From: Phycisphaerae bacterium
GTDB taxonomy: Bacteria > Planctomycetota > Phycisphaerae > UBA1845 > Fen-1342
NCBI GenBank assembly: GCA_050115495.1
Contig: JASFQK010000011.1
Span: 32,001 to 96,000 of the forward strand
Length of the DNA: 64,000 nucleotides
Direction: 5' to 3'
Shown piece by piece: positions 1 through 7,523 of the stretch (the first letter of the stretch is position 1; each line of letters starts with the position of its first letter). Under the pieces are notes generated by a model. It was not told the origin of the DNA, ran no database searches, and saw only the letters and a list, made by a program, of their open reading frames with translations. The translations under genes and the position numbers were made by a program.

Positions 1-2
1 AG

Positions 3-788
3 CGGAGCGGCGACAACGGGGCCGATCGGCCGGCGGCGCTCGACGATCTCGCCGTCGTGGCTCGTGACGAGGACGTGCTCGCTCTCCGCGGCCGCGTGCA
101 GCAGATCGAGCCGAACGCGGTACGTTTTGAGTGGAATGGGCGGGTCGTGCATTTGCCGTGGGCGCGTGTCGCCGGACTGCTGTTCGCGCGTCCGTCGCCG
201 CGGTCGGCGTCGTGCATCGTGCGGCTGCACAGTGGCGAGGCGTTCGCCGGCCGCGTGGTCGGTGGCGGGGCGGATGGGCTGGTGTTGCGCTCCGCAATGT
301 TCGAAGACCTGCCGCTGACGTGGGTGGCGATCGCCGGCGTCGACTGCCGTAGCGAGCGGCTGGTGTTCCTGTCCGAGTTGACACCGGCGCGGTACGAGTT
401 CGAGCCGCTGTTCGACAAACGGTGGGAGTTCGCGGCGGACCGCACGCTCAGCGGCCGGCGGATCCGGCTCGGCGGGCAGACGTACGCCCGCGGTCTGACG
501 CTGCACAGCGGAGCGCGGCTCACGTATCGCCTCGGCGGCCAGTTTGCCCAGTTCGCCGCTCTGGCCGGCATTGCGGATGAGATGTCGCAGCGCGGCTGCG
601 CGACGTTGCGCGTCGTGGGCGACGGCCAGGTGTTGTGGGAAGCGACCGGCGTCCGCGGCGGGCAGCCGCCGCGCGAGGTCGTCGTTTCGGTAAGCGGCGT
701 CGATGAACTGACGTTGATCGTCGAATACGGCGAAGAACTCGACCTGTCCGACGAGGTCGTCTGGGCGCTGGCGCGGGTGATTCGATGA
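3..788 (+). CDS. NPCBM/NEW2 domain-containing protein (5' end probably outside window)
   Basis: C-terminal motifs GQTYARGLTLHS, F..FAALAGIAD, VVGDGQVLW and V.GVDELTLIV..G typical of NPCBM/NEW2; frame open from the window start. Confidence 0.75.
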   Translation, partial: RSGDNGADRPAALDDLAVVARDEDVLALRGRVQQIEPNAVRFEWNGRVVHLPWARVAGLLFARPSPRSASCIVRLHSGEAFAGRVVGGGADGLVLRSAMFEDLPLTWVAIAGVDCRSERLVFLSELTPARYEFEPLFDKRWEFAADRTLSGRRIRLGGQTYARGLTLHSGARLTYRLGGQFAQFAALAGIADEMSQRGCATLRVVGDGQVLWEATGVRGGQPPREVVVSVSGVDELTLIVEYGEELDLSDEVVWALARVIR

Positions 789-2359
789 GTTGGCGGGCGT
801 TGCTGCTAGCCGTGGCGGTGGCCGGGTGCGTCGTCAGCGCGGCGCCGGCGGACGATCTCGCCGACGCGCTCGCCCTGGTTCGCCAGCAGGAGCAGCACCG
901 CGTCGAGGTGCTGGCCCAGGCCGCCCGTAGTGTCGTCTGCATCTACGGCGATCGCGAGCGCAGCGGTGGCGGCACCGGTGTCATCATCGACTCCGCGGGC
1001 TATGGCCTGACGAACTTCCACGTTGTGGCCGATCTGCTCGCCACACGCAGCGGCTTCGGCGGGCTGGCCGACGGCAACCTGTACCCGTTGCGGGTCATCG
1101 GCATCGACCCTGGCGGTGACCTGGCCTTCTTCAAGCTCGACGGCCGCGAACGCTTCGAGCCCGCCCCGCTGGGTGATGCGGCGACGTTGCAGCCCGGGCA
1201 GTGGGTCGCGGCCCTCGGCAATCCGTTCATGCTCGCCGAAGACGGCACGCCGACGGTGACGCTCGGCGTCGTCAGTGGGTTGCACCGCTACCAGTACGGC
1301 GAGGGGAACCTGCTCGAATACGCCGACTGCACCCAGGTTTCGACGTCGATCAACCCGGGGAACTCGGGCGGGCCGCTGTTCGACATGGCCGGCCGCGTCG
1401 TGGGGATCGTCGGGCGGGCGTCGTTCGAGGAGCGCGGGCGAGTGAACGTCGGCCTCGGCTACGCGATCACGATCAACCAGGCGAAGCGTTTCCTGCCGGC
1501 CCTGCGGGCGGGGCGGCTCTGCTATCACGGGACGCTCGGGGCCACCGTGCAGCGCGCCGGCGATGAGTTGATCTTCAACGCCGTGCAGGCTCTTTCGCCG
1601 GCCGAACGAGCGGGCGTCGAGCTCGGCGACGAGTTGCTTGCGATCAACGGCGACGCGGTGCATACGCCGAACGAGTTCAACAATGCGATTGCCGTGCTGC
1701 CGGCGGAATGGCCGGTGACGATCCTCGTTCGCCGGGGGGATCGTGAGCTGACGCTGCGAACGCGGTTACAGCGCCTGGTGTCAGCGGACCTGCCCACGTG
1801 GATTCCCGATCTGGCCCAGAACCACGTGGAGATTCGGCGGCTGCTGAGCCTGTACCGGCAGTATGACCTCGAGGCGGCGGGGCCGGAGCCGCGGCGTGTG
1901 CAGGGACGCGTGCGGCTGGGCGATGCGGAAGAGGAGGTACCGTTCATCGTCGGCGATGAAGCGGCGACGCCGCCCGGTTTACCGATGCTGGTCGAGTGGC
2001 AGGAGCTGATCGCGCCGTTGCTGCTCGGGGCCGAGTTTAATGTGGATTGGCAGGCACGCGGTGGCGACCTCGTGGACGGCCGGCTGGTCGCGGTGGTCGA
2101 ACGGCGATTGGGCGATGATCGCCGACTGCGCTGGAAGTTCGATGCGAAAACGAATGCGCTGCTGACGATGACTGTTGGCCGCGAACCGGATACGGAGTCG
2201 GTTACGTGGACACCCGGCGAGCGGTTTGCCTTCGGCGAGATGCGCTGGCCGCTGGTCTGGCAGCGACGGACGGCTGCCGGTGAGGAGACCAGGCTCGAAG
2301 TGCTCGCCATCGAAACGTTGCGCGACGCGCCGGCGACGCAGCCAGGGGGTGAGCCATGA
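785..2359 (+). CDS. HtrA/DegP-like S1C serine protease with PDZ domain and C-terminal extension; catalytic triad intact
   Basis: Signal peptide; TNFHV (His), DPGGDLA (Asp), INPGNSGGPL (Ser); PDZ SPAERAGVELGD; ATGA overlap with the upstream gene. Confidence 0.9.
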   Translation: MSWRALLLAVAVAGCVVSAAPADDLADALALVRQQEQHRVEVLAQAARSVVCIYGDRERSGGGTGVIIDSAGYGLTNFHVVADLLATRSGFGGLADGNLYPLRVIGIDPGGDLAFFKLDGRERFEPAPLGDAATLQPGQWVAALGNPFMLAEDGTPTVTLGVVSGLHRYQYGEGNLLEYADCTQVSTSINPGNSGGPLFDMAGRVVGIVGRASFEERGRVNVGLGYAITINQAKRFLPALRAGRLCYHGTLGATVQRAGDELIFNAVQALSPAERAGVELGDELLAINGDAVHTPNEFNNAIAVLPAEWPVTILVRRGDRELTLRTRLQRLVSADLPTWIPDLAQNHVEIRRLLSLYRQYDLEAAGPEPRRVQGRVRLGDAEEEVPFIVGDEAATPPGLPMLVEWQELIAPLLLGAEFNVDWQARGGDLVDGRLVAVVERRLGDDRRLRWKFDAKTNALLTMTVGREPDTESVTWTPGERFAFGEMRWPLVWQRRTAAGEETRLEVLAIETLRDAPATQPGGEP

Positions 2360-3384
2360 TGCGACGTGCGGGCTGGTGCAGCGTGCTTCTGCTCGCGGCG
2401 ATTCTCGCAAGCTGCGGCATCGTCGGCGTTCAGGACGCGGACAACGCCTCGTGGTTCAGCGAGGCGGTCTCCGCGGCGCAGCAGCGGGTCGTCAAGCTCT
2501 ACGGGGCGGGGCTCGGACGTGAGAAGGCGTACGGCTCGGGCGTGGTCGTGTCGGCGGATGGGAAGATCGTCACGGCGCTGACCGTGCTGCTCGAAGGACG
2601 CGGCTTGCGGGCGGTTCTGCCCGATGGCCGCACGTTGGCCGCGGAAGTCGTAGCCCGCGATGAGCGGCGGCAACTCGCCCTGCTCCAAGTTGACGCCGAG
2701 CAACTGCCGTATTTTGAACCGGGGCGGAGCGACGAGCTGCGGCCGGGCGATTGGGTGATCGCCGCGGGCAATCCGTTCAAGGTCGCCGACGGCCCCGAGC
2801 CTGTCTCCGTGTCGGTCGGGCTCTTCGCCGGCCGGACGGAGCTCAGCGGTCGGCACCGGGCCCGCGACTTCCCGTACACCGGGACGGTGCTGCTGACCGA
2901 TGCGATCGTCACGGCGCCGGGTTGTGCCGGCGGAGCGCTCGTGGACGGCCAAGGGCGGCTCGTGGGCGTGATCGGCCGGGCCGTCATCAGCAAGCATACG
3001 AACACCTGGCTCAACTGCGCGTTGCCGGTCGAGGAAGTCAGCGCGTTTCTCGCCGGCGGGGAGCAGGAGCCGGTGGCAGGGAGCACGAATCGCTCGCTGA
3101 CCGACGCCGCCCGACGACTTGCCGACCTGGGCATCTGCCTGTTCGACGTCGGCGGACGCGTGCGGCCGGCGTATGTCGAACGCATCCGCCCGGACTCGCC
3201 CGCGTGGATCGGCGGCTTGCGAGCCAACGACCTGATCATGTCGCTCGACGGACAGGCGGTTGATACGTGCGACGATCTGCGGCGGCTCATCGGCGAGGCC
3301 GGCCCGCAGCAACGGCTGACGCTCGTCGTCAAACGCGGTGACGAGCTCAAACTGATCGAACTGGCAGCGGAGCCACACGACTGA
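2356..3384 (+). CDS. HtrA-like trypsin/PDZ protein, catalytic residues lost (pseudo-protease)
   Basis: GSGVVVSADG, PGDWVIAAGNPF and a PDZ domain present; TALTV replaces TNxHV and PGCAGG replaces PGNSGG; N-terminal signal with LASC. Confidence 0.8.
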   Translation: MMRRAGWCSVLLLAAILASCGIVGVQDADNASWFSEAVSAAQQRVVKLYGAGLGREKAYGSGVVVSADGKIVTALTVLLEGRGLRAVLPDGRTLAAEVVARDERRQLALLQVDAEQLPYFEPGRSDELRPGDWVIAAGNPFKVADGPEPVSVSVGLFAGRTELSGRHRARDFPYTGTVLLTDAIVTAPGCAGGALVDGQGRLVGVIGRAVISKHTNTWLNCALPVEEVSAFLAGGEQEPVAGSTNRSLTDAARRLADLGICLFDVGGRVRPAYVERIRPDSPAWIGGLRANDLIMSLDGQAVDTCDDLRRLIGEAGPQQRLTLVVKRGDELKLIELAAEPHD

Positions 3385-4535
3385 TGAGATGGTCGATGCA
3401 CAACGTGCTGTGCGGCATGCTCGCCGGCGTCGTCCTGGCCGGGTCGCCGGCGGTCGCGGACGAGGCACGCGAAGCGTCGCGAATGCCGACGGCGCTCGCG
3501 CAAGTCTTCGACGCCGCGCTGCACACGGTGTCACCGTCGATCGTCCGTGTGGACACGATCGGCGGAGCGCCGCCAGTCGCGCCGGACTCGGCCGCCGGCG
3601 AGGGCGGGCAGACGTTCCAGCAAGCGGATGGCCCAACGACCGGCCTGATCTGCTCGGCCGACGGATACATCCTGACGAGCAGCTTCAACTTCATGCGCGA
3701 CCCGTCGGTGATCACCGTGCGGCTGGATGACGGCCGGCGGTTCGTGGCGTACGTCGTGGCCCGCGACGATCCCGCCGGCCTGACGCTCATCAAGATCGCC
3801 GCCGACGATCTGCCCGTGCCGCGCTGGCTCCCGCCGAGCAAGGTGAGGCCCGGGCAATGGGCGCTGGTGGCCGGCTACGGCTACGGCAGCGCGACGCCCA
3901 CGCTCTCCGCCGGCGTGATCAGTGCCGGGCGGCGGCTTGATGACCGGGCCGTGCAGACCGACGCGCGGACCTCGCCGGCGAACTACGGCGGCCCGCTCTT
4001 CGACGTCGAAGGTCGCGTCATCGGCATCTGCGTGCCCAAGGCCGGCGGCGACGAGGACCAGATCGCCGGCGCCCAGTGGTACGACTCGGGTATCGGCTTT
4101 GCCATTCACGCGGATTACATTAACGAGCGCCTGCCGCGGCTGATGCGTGGCGAGGACCTCGAACGCGGCTATCTCGGCGTCACGTTCGATCGGGCCGATC
4201 CGGTCGTCGGCAGTGCCGATGCTGCATCACTCGGCGGCGTGCGCATCCTCGCGGCCACGCCTGGGCCGGCGATGGATGCCGGACTCGCCGTCGGCGACGT
4301 TGTCACGCACGTGAATGGCCGGGCGGTCGAGCGGTTCGTCGAATTGCGACGGGAGCTGATCCGCCTGACGCCCGGACAGACGATCGAGCTGACCTGGCGG
4401 CGTGAAGGCGTCACGCAGTCGGCGGCGGTGACGCTCATCGGCTGGCGGGATTTGCTGTTGCGTGGCGGGGCCGCGCCGGAGCCGCGGCCGGCTACAATGC
4501 CCGCACAACCGGAGTCCCCAGGAACCGCGCCTTGA
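3384..4535 (+). CDS. HtrA-like trypsin/PDZ protein, catalytic residues lost (pseudo-protease)
   Basis: TGLICSADGYIL, VQTDARTSPANYGGPLFD (Ser to Tyr), LTSSFN (no His), RGYLGV..PA..AGL..GD PDZ; TGATG overlap. Confidence 0.8.
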   Translation: MRWSMHNVLCGMLAGVVLAGSPAVADEAREASRMPTALAQVFDAALHTVSPSIVRVDTIGGAPPVAPDSAAGEGGQTFQQADGPTTGLICSADGYILTSSFNFMRDPSVITVRLDDGRRFVAYVVARDDPAGLTLIKIAADDLPVPRWLPPSKVRPGQWALVAGYGYGSATPTLSAGVISAGRRLDDRAVQTDARTSPANYGGPLFDVEGRVIGICVPKAGGDEDQIAGAQWYDSGIGFAIHADYINERLPRLMRGEDLERGYLGVTFDRADPVVGSADAASLGGVRILAATPGPAMDAGLAVGDVVTHVNGRAVERFVELRRELIRLTPGQTIELTWRREGVTQSAAVTLIGWRDLLLRGGAAPEPRPATMPAQPESPGTAP

Positions 4536-5275
4536 ACGTTGCCCTGTTCGTTACCTGCCTGACCGACACGTTCTTCCCCCGCGCCGGTGAGGCCGTGGTC
4601 CGCGTGCTGCGCCATTTCGGCTGCACCGTGGCGTTTCCCGAAGAGCAGACCTGTTGCGGCCAGCCGGCGTACAACAGCGGCTTTCATGACGAGGCCGCCC
4701 GCCTCGCCCGCCGATGGATCAAGGTGTTCGCGCCGTACGAGACGATCATCTGTCCGTCGGCGTCGTGCACGGCGATGGTGTGCGAACACTACCCGACATT
4801 GCTGGCGAGTGATCCGGACGAGTTGTCGGCGGCGCGGGCGCTGGCGGGTAGGACGTTTGAGTTCACGGCGTTCCTGCGCGATCGGCTGCACGTGGACATC
4901 GCCGCGCACCTGTCGTTCGACGAGCCGGTGACGTTCCACTATCCGTGCCATGCGCGGGGGATCTACTCGGCCGCCGATCTGGAAAGCTGGCTTGCCGGCG
5001 TGCGTGGCATCGACTTGCGCGTGCCGGCGCATCGCGATCTGTGTTGCGGGTTCGGCGGGGCGTTCGCCGTCGAGCAGCCGGAGATCAGCGGGGCGATGCT
5101 GAGCGACAAGCTCGACGACCTGGCGGCGACGGGGGCGAAGCTCGTCGTGTCGAACGAGGGTGGGTGCACGTTGCAGATCGCCGGCGGGGCGCGGCGACGT
5201 GGATTGCCGCTACGGTTCAAGCACATCGCCGAGTGCCTGGCCGAATCGCTCGGGCTGATGGAGCGGCAGCCATGA
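4532..5275 (+). CDS. lutA: Lactate utilization protein A (LutA/LldE/YkgE, CCG Fe-S domains)
   Basis: VALFVTCL, QTCCGQP, SASC, HYPCH and CCGFGG motifs; TTG start overlaps the previous stop. Confidence 0.9.
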   Translation: MNVALFVTCLTDTFFPRAGEAVVRVLRHFGCTVAFPEEQTCCGQPAYNSGFHDEAARLARRWIKVFAPYETIICPSASCTAMVCEHYPTLLASDPDELSAARALAGRTFEFTAFLRDRLHVDIAAHLSFDEPVTFHYPCHARGIYSAADLESWLAGVRGIDLRVPAHRDLCCGFGGAFAVEQPEISGAMLSDKLDDLAATGAKLVVSNEGGCTLQIAGGARRRGLPLRFKHIAECLAESLGLMERQP

Positions 5276-6672
5276 GCCGGCGGGACGAATTCCGCGAGCG
5301 CGTCCGGCGGGCGGTGGCCGATCGGCGCGTTGTCGATGCGGTGCACCTGGCCACGTGGCGGAAGGTCGAGGCTCGCGAGCAGAGCCTGGCCGCCTTGCGC
5401 GACGCGCAGGGTTTGCGCGAGCTCGCCGGTCGGATCAAACAGCACACGCTCGATCACCTGCCGCAGTACCTCGATCAGTTCGTCGGCAAGCTGGGCGAAC
5501 GCGGCGTGCCGGTGTACCTGGCGACGGACGCCGCCGCGGCCCGCGAGGTCATCTGTCGGCTCGCTCGCGAGCACGACTGCCGGCTCACCGTGAAGGTCAA
5601 GAGCATGACGACGGAGGAAGTCGGGCTCAACGACGCCCTGGCCAGCGAGGGCGTCGCCGTGCACGAGACCGATCTCGGCGAGTTCATCGTGCAGATCGAC
5701 CACGACCGGCCGAGCCACATCGTCACGCCGATCATCCACAAGGATCGCCGGCAGGTTGCCCGGGCGATGGAGCGCGAGCTGGGCTGCCCGTACACCGAGG
5801 ATCCGACCGAACTCACGAAGCTCGCGCGCGGCTATTTACGCGACATCTTCCGCCGCTGCGACCTGGGTATCAGCGGGGCGAACTTCGGCGTCGCCGAGAC
5901 GGGCACGATCTGCATCTGCACGAACGAGGGCAACGGCCGCATGACGACGACACGGCCGCGGCTGCATGTCGTGCTTATGGGTATTGAGAAGCTCGTGCCA
6001 CGGTTGGCCGACCTGGCCGTGCTGCTCAAGCTGCTGTCGCGTTCGAGCACGGGGCAGCCGCTCGGATCGTATACGACGCTCATCACCGGGCCGCGGCAGG
6101 CGGGCGACGCTGACGGGCCGGAGCATCTGCACGTCGTGCTGCTTGACAACGGCCGCAGCAGCGTGCTCGGCGGGGCGTTTCACGAAGTGCTGCGCTGTGT
6201 GCGGTGCGGTGCGTGCCTGAACGCGTGTCCGGTCTATCGGAACATCGGCGGGCATGCGTACAACAGCGTCTATCCCGGCCCGATTGGCAGCCTGGTCACG
6301 CCGCTGCTCAACGCCGCCGGCGGACACGATGCGCTGCCGCGGGCGTCGAGCCTGTGCGGGGCGTGCGCCGAGGCGTGCCCGGTGAAGATCGACATACCGG
6401 CGTACCTGATTCAGCTGCGAGCCGCGGCACGCGATCGGCAACCGTGGGCCAAGCGGGCGGCGTTCCGCGGGTGGCTGTGGGCGATGTCTTCGGAGTGGAC
6501 GTATGCCTGGGGGCAGCGGCTGATGGCGACGTTTCTGCCGGATGATGGCGAGGACTGGGCGGTGCGCGGGTTCGGACCGCTGGGCGAGTGGACGTCGAAC
6601 CGTGATCTGCGAAGGCCGCCGGGCAAGCCCTTCCGTAAGCTGTGGAATGAGGGTTTGTGCGATGAACGCTGA
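5272..6672 (+). CDS. lutB: Lactate utilization protein B (LutB/LldF/YkgF)
   Basis: KVKSMTTEE, ETDLGEFIVQ, PSHIVTP, CVRCGACLNACP and SSLCGACAEACP; ATG at 5272 overlaps the lutA stop. Confidence 0.93.
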   Translation: MSRRDEFRERVRRAVADRRVVDAVHLATWRKVEAREQSLAALRDAQGLRELAGRIKQHTLDHLPQYLDQFVGKLGERGVPVYLATDAAAAREVICRLAREHDCRLTVKVKSMTTEEVGLNDALASEGVAVHETDLGEFIVQIDHDRPSHIVTPIIHKDRRQVARAMERELGCPYTEDPTELTKLARGYLRDIFRRCDLGISGANFGVAETGTICICTNEGNGRMTTTRPRLHVVLMGIEKLVPRLADLAVLLKLLSRSSTGQPLGSYTTLITGPRQAGDADGPEHLHVVLLDNGRSSVLGGAFHEVLRCVRCGACLNACPVYRNIGGHAYNSVYPGPIGSLVTPLLNAAGGHDALPRASSLCGACAEACPVKIDIPAYLIQLRAAARDRQPWAKRAAFRGWLWAMSSEWTYAWGQRLMATFLPDDGEDWAVRGFGPLGEWTSNRDLRRPPGKPFRKLWNEGLCDER

Positions 6673-7360
6673 ACATGCCGGTCAATCCGGGCGGACGGAT
6701 GCGGCGCTGACCGCGTTCATCGCCGGTCTGCGCTGCAAGACCACGGCTGTGGCCGAGCCGGTGCCGTTGCCGGAGATCGGTCAGACGGGGCGGCAGGTGG
6801 CGGCGGATGACGATCTCGAAACACGCTTTGCGAAGGCGGCGATGGCGGCGGGGATGACCGTGCACCGCGTGTCGCCGGCGACGTGGGTCGATGAGCTGAT
6901 GCGGTTGGCGGGAGAACTGAAGGCGGGGCACGTCCTCGTGGCAGCTCAGGATGGATCGGCGTTGGCCTCGGCGCAGGCGGCAGTGGTCGGCGAGCGTCTC
7001 TCGGCCGCGGGTGTCACGGTGCATACCGACCTGAGCGACGACACGTTATTCAGCGTCGATGTGGCGGTGACGGGCGTTTCCGCCGGCATCGCCGAGACGG
7101 GCACGATCGTGGCGACGTCCGGGCCGGGATTGGCCCGTGCGTCGTCGCTGATCCCGCCGCTGCACGTGGCGGTGGTGCTCGCCGAGCAGATTGTGCCCGA
7201 TCTTCACGATTACTTCGCTCTGTTGGACGCCGGAGCGCTCCCCGCCGGCGTGCACCTGATCAGCGGGCCGAGCAAGACGGCGGACATCGAAGGCATCCTC
7301 GTCACCGGCGTCCACGGGCCCGCGCAGGTGCATATCCTCCTGGTCTCCCGCGGGGCCTAG
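6662..7360 (+). CDS. lutC: Lactate utilization protein C (LutC/LldG/YkgG)
   Basis: IAETGT, SLIPPLHVAV and ISGPSKTADIE..LV.GVHGP. Confidence 0.9.
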   Translation: MNAEHAGQSGRTDAALTAFIAGLRCKTTAVAEPVPLPEIGQTGRQVAADDDLETRFAKAAMAAGMTVHRVSPATWVDELMRLAGELKAGHVLVAAQDGSALASAQAAVVGERLSAAGVTVHTDLSDDTLFSVDVAVTGVSAGIAETGTIVATSGPGLARASSLIPPLHVAVVLAEQIVPDLHDYFALLDAGALPAGVHLISGPSKTADIEGILVTGVHGPAQVHILLVSRGA

Positions 7361-7523
7361 CATGGGTGGGGCGACCGTCTCGCCGGTCGTCTTCCTCGAC
7401 GAACCATCGCCGTCCGCTCCGACGCCGCGAGATCAACGCCACGTGCGCCGACACGCTGGGCTCGGATGGACGACTGCTCACTGCCCAAGCCACGCACCGC
7501 GACAGACCGCACGCACGTCAGCG

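Follow-up and report, generated by a model that had tools for sequence, protein, structure and literature searches.

We analysed a 64,000-nucleotide stretch of a Phycisphaerae bacterium genome (GCA_050115495.1, contig JASFQK010000011.1, positions 32,001 to 96,000; G000:C11:32001-96000 in our numbering), referred to below as the window, and focused on three successive HtrA-type genes at window positions 785-4535, each encoding a trypsin-fold domain followed by a PDZ domain. We named these genes A, B and C, and together the trio. Coordinates are window positions unless labelled otherwise and are collected in Table 1. An earlier sequence-only reading of this DNA had described three overlapping trypsin and PDZ genes behind an NPCBM/NEW2 gene, and had proposed that their products form a complex of one enzyme and two pseudoenzymes. 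The open reading frames (ORFs), the Pfam matches and the ATGA and TGATG junctions confirmed the gene layout. The same reading had held that B and C retain the fold, the PDZ domain and intact frames, and this was found as well, with full ORFs and with Trypsin_2 and PDZ matches above the cut-offs in both.

Table 1. Features of the HtrA-type trio and of the genes around it.
Feature	Position	Strand	Evidence or remark
NPCBM/NEW2 protein, 3' part, ORF open at 5' end	3..788	+	Pfam NPCBM, E 1.8e-29
Full NPCBM gene, 411 amino acids, exported	G000:C11:31553-32788 (= L001:11553-12788)		Pfam NPCBM, E 4.6e-29
NPCBM/A junction	785-788	+	ATGA start/stop overlap
HtrA paralogue A, 524 amino acids	785..2359	+	Trypsin_2 7.6e-30 (residues 63-208); PDZ_2 6.9e-10 (PDZ residues 249-327)
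Catalytic codon of A, His79	1019..1021	+	Invariant column in the 28-row alignment A2
Catalytic codon of A, Asp112	1118-1120	+	Invariant column in the 28-row alignment A2
Catalytic codon of A, Ser194	1364-1366	+	Invariant column in the 28-row alignment A2
LolA-like C-terminal domain of A, residues 335-524	1787..2356	+	Fold match
A/B junction	2356..2359	+	ATGA start/stop overlap
HtrA paralogue B, 342 amino acids, pseudoprotease, one PDZ	2356..3384	+	Trypsin_2 5e-24; PDZ_6 1.6e-12
B/C junction	3382-3386	+	TGATG
HtrA paralogue C, 383 amino acids, pseudoprotease, one PDZ	3384..4535	+	Trypsin_2 2.7e-23; PDZ_2 2e-12
lutA, lutB, lutC	4532-7360 (lutA 4532-5275)	+	CCG, LUD and 4Fe-4S domains; stops overlap; directly after C
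IS200-like Y1 transposase, 150 amino acids	7660-8112	-	Y1_Tnp, E 2.1e-24
Radical SAM protein, 345 amino acids	8417-9454	-	Pfam, E 9.5e-16
PQQ/BamB-like beta-propeller protein, 1520 amino acids, and squalene-hopene-cyclase-like protein (weak match), 396 amino acids	L051:5752-12598 (= G000:C11:13752-20598)		Apparent operon start; start positions provisional

Protein A starts with a hydrophobic stretch and a long helix, continues with the trypsin-fold protease domain and a single PDZ domain, and ends in a LolA-like domain; its structure model had a predicted local distance difference test (pLDDT) score of 86.5 and a predicted template modelling score of 0.85. Judged by eye, all three proteins have a hydrophobic N-terminus, and export of all three is putative. 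Lipobox-like motifs occur in the window copies (VAGC in A and LASC in B); inspection by eye showed that they are not kept among the aligned orthologues, and a conserved lipobox in A or B was rejected. The database names of these proteins are generic, namely "trypsin-like peptidase domain-containing protein" and "PDZ domain-containing protein".

We located the catalytic positions by alignment to solved HtrA chains. The results showed His79, Asp112 and Ser194 in A, with all three residues kept, Thr76, Gln106 and Ala191 at the same positions in B, and Asn102, Gly132 and Tyr201 in C. The motifs in the translations were TNFHV, GDLA and PGNSGG in A, TALTV and PGCAGG in B, and TSSFN and PANYGG in C; every motif quoted in the sequence-only reading was present, and its claim that only A keeps His-Asp-Ser, with B and C catalytically dead, agreed with the alignment. 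The best sequence matches of A, B and C were solved HtrA, DegP, DegQ, DegS and AlgW chains, with lowest E-values of 5.9e-34, 1.4e-28 and 1.7e-31, respectively. All three proteins have the domain order of the HtrA/DegP family (S1C), a trypsin fold followed by at least one PDZ domain, above the Pfam cut-offs, and the S1C triad was found in A only. Judged from sequence, B and C are S1C family homologues and not S1C peptidases, because the His-Asp-Ser triad is absent from them.

Narrower family models gave no assignment. The NCBIfam model TIGR02037 (Do family serine endopeptidase) scored 172.3 bits for A, 135.4 for B and 155.3 for C, all below its cut-off of 416.2, and the NCBIfam equivalog models for DegS, DegP and DegQ left all three proteins far below their cut-offs. 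Against the MamO model NF040961, with a cut-off of 800, A, B and C reached 48.5, 32.8 and 19.3 bits, and none is a member; Pfam detected no TauE domain in any of them. The tandem HtrA arrangement of the DEG7/Nma111 type, with two protease domains per chain, does not occur in the window, where the genes are separated by stops. Genome G000, from which the window comes, contained 13 Trypsin_2 matches, 12 of them above the Pfam cut-off, and therefore at least six ordinary HtrA-like paralogues besides the trio.

Relatives of the trio were gathered in three samples. In the first, B was searched in 41 related genomes and matched in 20 of them, the window's own genome included, at 180-748 bits, while ordinary HtrAs reached at most 95.5 bits. 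The gene order p718-coiled coil-TPR-NPCBM-A-B-C recurred in 19 fetched loci, 17 of which contained C; of the remaining two, one contig stops inside B and one locus lacks C. In the second sample, a B alignment was scanned against one genome per species, yielding 90 relatives, of which 80 loci were kept, all from Phycisphaerae or Planctomycetota metagenome-assembled genomes. These 80 loci partly overlap the 19-locus set, and the two sets were not summed. Among the 80 loci, counting those with room for the neighbour, A lay upstream of B in 65 of 66, C lay downstream of B in 71 of 72, and the NPCBM gene lay upstream of A in 57 of 61. The arrangement recurs in about 80 other genomes and is therefore not due to chance; conservation of the neighbourhood had been named as a check by the sequence-only reading. 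A candidate start codon overlapped the upstream stop by 1-4 nucleotides at 59 of 73 A/B junctions and 63 of 74 B/C junctions of the related loci, counts that are biased upward since the nearest start codon was picked.

The third sample was an even set of 201 genomes of the class, in which a B orthologue was defined by E <=1e-60. B orthologues were found in 33 of the 201 genomes, with a single match in each positive genome. They were concentrated in the order of the window, where they occurred in 6/7 genomes of family f1, 8/9 of f2 and 8/9 of f7, and were also found in three more families (f13, 6/22; f24, 3/5; f17, 1/8). In the same sample they were absent from f12 (0/26), f14 (0/27), f16 (0/27) and f23 (0/19).

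We then compared the catalytic positions across the orthologues. In A, His was present in all 64 non-gap rows, Asp in 66/71 and Ser in 69/70, the odd rows being partial or fused segments. No His was found in any of 81 B rows, Gln occupied the Asp position in 75 of 80, and the nucleophile position held Ala in 36 rows, Pro in 40 and other residues in five, with Ser in only one of the 81. The C orthologues had no His in 76 rows (motif SSFNF) and no Ser at the nucleophile position in 74 rows, where Tyr (67), Phe (6) and Leu (1) were found instead; their Asp position was taken by Lys (42), Arg (27), Gly (3) or Gln (3) in 75 rows. The ratio of nonsynonymous to synonymous substitution rates (dN/dS, Nei-Gojobori method, NG86), calculated for six independent close pairs, was 0.08-0.22 for A, 0.13-0.33 for B and 0.05-0.30 for C, and two further pairs agreed with these values. 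The sequence-only reading had made its case depend on dead paralogues that are conserved, not neutral, and without the triad in other genomes, and this is what the orthologues showed.

In a tree of 75 rows, A, B and C each formed one clade with a Shimodaira-Hasegawa-like approximate likelihood ratio test support of 100 and with matching sub-clades. A grouped with the ordinary HtrAs of the same genome, and B stood on a long stem. Because each paralogue forms a single clade with the same sub-groups, dN/dS is low and the replacement residues are conserved, the comparison of sequences indicates that the triplication and the catalytic loss are older than the spread of these lineages, and that the dead copies have been kept by selection.

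Gene fusions provided a further line of evidence. Among the 80 loci, A and B formed one frame without a stop in 9 of 65. At every fusion junction the hydrophobic leader of B was replaced by a linker running into the conserved N-terminal helix of B, and the C-terminal domain of A was kept in some A-B fusions and absent in others. When fusion, present in 9 of 75 scored rows, was mapped onto a tree of 80 B sequences, six changes were needed, at least five of which are forced by well-supported branches. One fused locus, L060, sits on a 4.85-Mb contig, so an assembly artefact is unlikely to explain the fusion. A protein collection contained 22 longer relatives of B, 665-1227 amino acids in length, comprising 19 A-B fusions, two B-C fusions and one A-B-C fusion. 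The last, P0010 (1227 amino acids), is a complete A-B-C chain with one N-terminal leader, three Trypsin_2 and three PDZ stretches, and the motifs PGNSGGP, PGFAGGA and PANYGGP in that order. A second A-B-C frame was found in locus L079, where the contig ends within C. C is thus fused behind B in P0010, P0019, P0020 and L079. In all fusions, PGNSGGP is kept in the A part and the dead motifs are kept in the B and C parts. Of all the evidence, these gene fusions most strongly suggest that A, B and C associate.

Two additional proteins of the collection, P0021 and P0022 (1050 amino acids), are divergent fusion proteins in which an A-like active module, some 400 inserted amino acids and a B-like dead module follow one another. 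The B-like module has 33% identity to B and the motif PGAAGGA, and a 4.37-Mb contig encodes one of the two proteins. Their source may be a more distant lineage.

We next predicted the structure of the complex from the protease domains (A26-246, B30-236 and C34-258) with custom alignments, taking C as the scored partner. Three runs of the A+B+C prediction gave interaction scores derived from predicted aligned errors (ipSAE) of 0.89, 0.92 and 0.92, whereas the best of three controls, which did not include homotrimers, scored 0.02. The pLDDT of the partner was at least 87, and contacts agreed between runs by at least 91%. In the calibration of the method, the mark used for this score was reached by 116 of 157 solved complexes and by 2 of 215 mismatched pairs. 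The prediction places C against A and B simultaneously at low expected error; among the contacting segments are residues 27-47 of A and 34-46 of C, both in the N-terminal helices, and residues 147-160 of A. A hetero-oligomer, as the sequence-only reading had called for, was therefore predicted.

The C-terminal domain of A was modelled with a pLDDT of 89.6. Pfam returned no family for the C-terminal 194 amino acids of A at E-values up to 10. The best Foldseek match was 3buu_A of the LolA superfamily (E 3.6e-6, probability 1.0), and VIA-align gave Z scores of 11.3 to 4z48_B (162 residues, root-mean-square deviation 4.5), 11.3 to 3bk5_A (158 residues, 4.2) and 10.5 to 3buu_B, all three alignments covering 158-162 residues at deviations of 4.2-4.5. 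RseB and MucB, which are regulators of the DegS/AlgW pathway, stood lower in the Foldseek list, at E-values of 3e-3 to 1e-2. The domain thus has the unclosed beta-barrel with helices of the LolA superfamily at the level of the fold, with no sequence family. In contrast to LolA, LolB, RseB and MucB, the domain in A is fused to the protease itself, and identity to the matches is 5-13%. The literature consulted on HtrA systems contained no mention of a LolA-like domain joined to an HtrA protease. The modelled fold suggests a lipid, acylated-ligand or lipoprotein-related input to A.

The genes directly ahead of the trio, all on the plus strand, encode MoxR, DUF58, BatA_N/VWA, an 812-amino-acid and a 718-amino-acid protein, a coiled-coil protein, a TPR protein and the NPCBM protein. 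The domain matches were AAA_3 in MoxR (E 3.7e-63), DUF58 (1.3e-47) and BatA (7.1e-16); the DUF4175 match of the coiled-coil protein and the TPR_19 match were weak and below the cut-off. MoxR AAA_3, DUF58, BatA/VWA and TPR genes make up the set known from MoxR-VWA/Bat (Bacteroides aerotolerance) operons, and the AAA+, DUF58, BatA-N/VWA and TPR genes occur together upstream of the trio. Gene content and order accordingly place the trio at the 3' end of a putative MoxR-DUF58-BatA/VWA-TPR-NPCBM envelope operon in one part of Phycisphaerae. Homologues of the NPCBM protein were found in 91 of the 201 class genomes, including all 33 that have B. We also fetched six loci, L136-L141, from genomes without a B orthologue (G187, G166, G118, G124, G233 and G191). 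In five of the six, NPCBM, TPR and coiled-coil genes lay in operon order, the sixth had NPCBM with a separated TPR match, and three of the six had a match to the 718-amino-acid protein. None of the fetched stretches (0/6) contained a match to A, B or C, and the operon ends at the NPCBM gene there. Because the operon occurs without the trio in these six genomes and NPCBM is more widely distributed, we take the trio to be a lineage-specific addition to an older operon.

Several further genes flank this region. Ahead of MoxR lie the 1520-amino-acid PQQ/BamB-like protein and a 396-amino-acid prenyltransferase-like protein with a weak squalene-hopene-cyclase C-terminal match; the start positions of both genes are provisional, and spurious long ORFs are common in GC-rich DNA. 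Downstream, C joins lutA through a TTGA overlap. LutA followed C in 12 of 67 loci with room in the 80-locus set and in 6 of 19 in the first set, and on account of this limited linkage LutABC was rejected as a part of the system; going by gene neighbourhoods, the link between C and lutABC is probably a local operon join. The transposase lies just past the lut genes, at the end of the plus-strand operon. RNA runs were sought for window positions 1-7400, and the three sequencing runs listed included none of RNA. The operon context, the LolA-like domain of A and the incidental nature of the lutABC link go beyond the sequence-only reading. That reading had also considered the NPCBM protein as a partner of the trio, a possible role to which the conserved adjacency of the two genes, and that alone, points.

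Taken together, we consider it probable that the three proteins assemble into one exported complex of the HtrA type, most likely a 1:1:1 heterotrimer whose only catalytic site is that of A. The idea of a complex of one enzyme and two pseudoenzymes, put forward by the sequence-only reading, is supported, and the A-B, B-C and A-B-C fusions add independent support. The basic unit of the HtrA family is a trimer held together by the protease domains (PMC3194040), and crosstalk between PDZ and protease domains of different subunits is described for engineered HtrA2 heterotrimers (bioRxiv 10.1101/2021.10.04.462974). In the proposed mechanism, A, B and C would assemble on this trimeric protease-domain core, leaving one active site, that of A. 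B and C, ancient pseudoproteases that keep the trypsin fold and PDZ domain, would complete the trimer required by an HtrA protomer and would, as sensors or scaffolds without catalysis of their own, regulate the active site of A in trans through their PDZ domains and loops. Activation from neighbour to neighbour is known for DegS, DegP and HtrA2, as are details of the loop relay in DegS and DegP. The complex may act on or with products of the Bat-like/NPCBM operon as an accessory module. The stoichiometry, the allostery in trans, the substrates and the link to the Bat-like proteins are what we infer from this evidence.

Several observations weigh against a heterotrimer. The identity of A is 29% to B and 30% to C, which is no higher than its 30-35% to the ordinary HtrAs of its genome. 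The high score of the predicted complex may partly reflect the model's memory of solved HtrA homotrimers. When A was swapped for an unrelated protein, C scored 0.02 despite the presence of B, so a contact between B and C alone is unsupported. Residues at the predicted interface showed no excess of conservation over the remaining residues of each domain (Mann-Whitney p 0.78, 0.11 and 0.24). Fusion and translational coupling are compatible with any fixed-ratio assembly and not only with a trimer. Adjacency is also not obligatory, since in genome G021 the C orthologue lies alone on another contig (L132, G021:C42:15748-19800), and locus L110 has B in three pieces with no A upstream. Both exceptions could be due to relocation, decay or assembly error. 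The match to the C orthologue of G021 contains one reported in-frame TAG.

In another arrangement, each paralogue would form its own homotrimer, and stacking of A3 with B3 and/or C3 would give a mixed higher oligomer, as in plant Deg5/Deg8. Equimolar coupling and the fusions would fit such stacked homotrimers equally well. Nevertheless, a single chain with three different protease domains, as in P0010 and L079, folds most simply as one pseudo-trimer, and the simultaneous contact of C with A and B in the prediction is also at odds with stacking. The cages of DegP and DegQ are built by a pair of PDZ domains, and A has one PDZ domain and a LolA-like domain in place of that pair. We therefore regard stacked homotrimers as unlikely, though they deserve more weight than either of the alternatives that follow. 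One of these is that B and C do not bind A at all and serve as independent non-catalytic binders or scaffolds for the Bat-like/NPCBM system, A being an ordinary homotrimer in the same pathway. Dead HtrA homologues with structural or activating roles of their own do exist, as reported for PflC (PMC12222027) and MamO (PMC4794232), and the lack of special conservation at the predicted interface would suit such a role. The recurrent A-B fusion, with its at least five changes on the tree, and the B-C and A-B-C fusions count against independent scaffolds because fusion of this kind is typical of proteins working as a single physical unit; the confident predicted interface and the almost invariable inheritance of the three genes together point the same way. 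This alternative is, in our view, slightly less likely still.

That B and C are enzymes with non-canonical residues, or decaying copies, is highly improbable. Some B orthologues have a Ser one position ahead of the lost nucleophile (PGSAGGA, 19 of 81 rows) and C has a conserved Tyr at the nucleophile position, both of which could be taken to hint at non-canonical catalysis. However, the complete lack of His in the B and C rows speaks against it, as do the variability of the position preceding the lost Ser in B (S, A, G, C, F, Y or M) and the Pro that stands at the Ser position itself in about half of the B rows. Decay is refuted by the intact frames, by dN/dS values of 0.05-0.33 and by the single clade that each paralogue forms across the class.

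We compared the proposed heterotrimer with known HtrA systems. As in DegS, DegP, DegQ and HtrA2 (MEROPS S1C), a trypsin-fold protease domain is followed by PDZ in A, B and C, and the proteins look exported; unlike those proteases, the trio consists of three diverged paralogues, two of them without the triad. Deg5 and Deg8 of Arabidopsis are both active proteases. A 2016 review describes a complex made of homotrimers in which these two HtrA paralogues occur at a 1:1 ratio, and calls them the only known Deg hetero-oligomers (PMC4877387). Compared at the level of the HtrA family, they differ from the trio in that their genes are eukaryotic and nuclear, so there is neither an operon nor a fusion. 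In plant DEG7, a degenerate protease domain is specialised for protein-protein contact and trimerisation (PMC3194040). The natural A-B fusions resemble DEG7 and yeast Nma111 in joining an active and a degenerate domain in one chain. However, DEG7 forms homotrimers of a two-domain chain through its degenerate domains, whereas here there are three modules, usually encoded by separate genes, and the proposed trimer would contain one of each. An independent origin of the trio and DEG7/Nma111 is likely.

MamO of magnetotactic bacteria is an HtrA-family pseudoprotease required for the activity of the nearby-encoded active paralogue MamE; its site is degenerate, it works through metal binding and a TauE transporter domain, and physical contact between MamO and MamE was not detected (PMC4794232). 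The trio shares with MamO/MamE the close encoding of a pseudoprotease and an active HtrA paralogue, and differs from MamO in lacking TauE and in falling below the MamO cut-off. PflC, from the flagellar motor of Campylobacter, is an HtrA homologue that lacks the triad; it is retained in a structural role and forms a flagellar disk lattice (PMC12222027). It is not paired with an active paralogue, whereas the context of the trio is a Bat-like operon. The listed entries on MoxR-VWA/Bat operons (PMC5700661 and PMC11834572) mention neither an HtrA trio nor an NPCBM gene at the operon end, unlike the operon described here. The trio thus differs from DEG7/Nma111, MamO/MamE, PflC and Deg5/Deg8 in having three distinct modules, of which one is live and two are dead, and in the co-inheritance, coupling and repeated fusion of these modules. 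The sequence-only reading knew of no characterised system of this kind, and the literature consulted, most subscription journals being outside its scope, likewise described neither the trio nor any natural HtrA heterotrimer that contains dead subunits.

A more specific form of the heterotrimer can be put forward tentatively, its chances lying a little short of even: a 1:1:1 HtrA heterotrimer that is obligate and asymmetric, has precisely one catalytic site and combines a fixed cyclic order A-B-C with a one-way activation relay. The cyclic order is proposed because the gene order and the single-chain A-B-C fusions suggest it. In such a trimer, one dead neighbour would switch the active site of A by way of its PDZ domain and sensor loop, while the other dead subunit and the LolA-like domain of A would add inputs, for example a lipid or glycan cue through the NPCBM/Bat-like system.

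HtrA proteases are textbook homotrimers in which activation passes from a subunit to its neighbour, and as long as the subunits are identical, sensing, relaying and cutting can be separated only with engineered mixed trimers. If true, the one-way relay trimer would be the natural counterpart of the mixed trimers engineered for studies of HtrA allostery, and one cutting subunit with two dedicated non-cutting subunits would offer a clean natural test of the relay; nature already provides the trio in single-chain form. HtrA would then be one more enzyme family with dead paralogues turned into obligate partners of the live enzyme, and the trio would open a first way into the function of the MoxR/Bat-like envelope operons of Planctomycetota, which are poorly understood.

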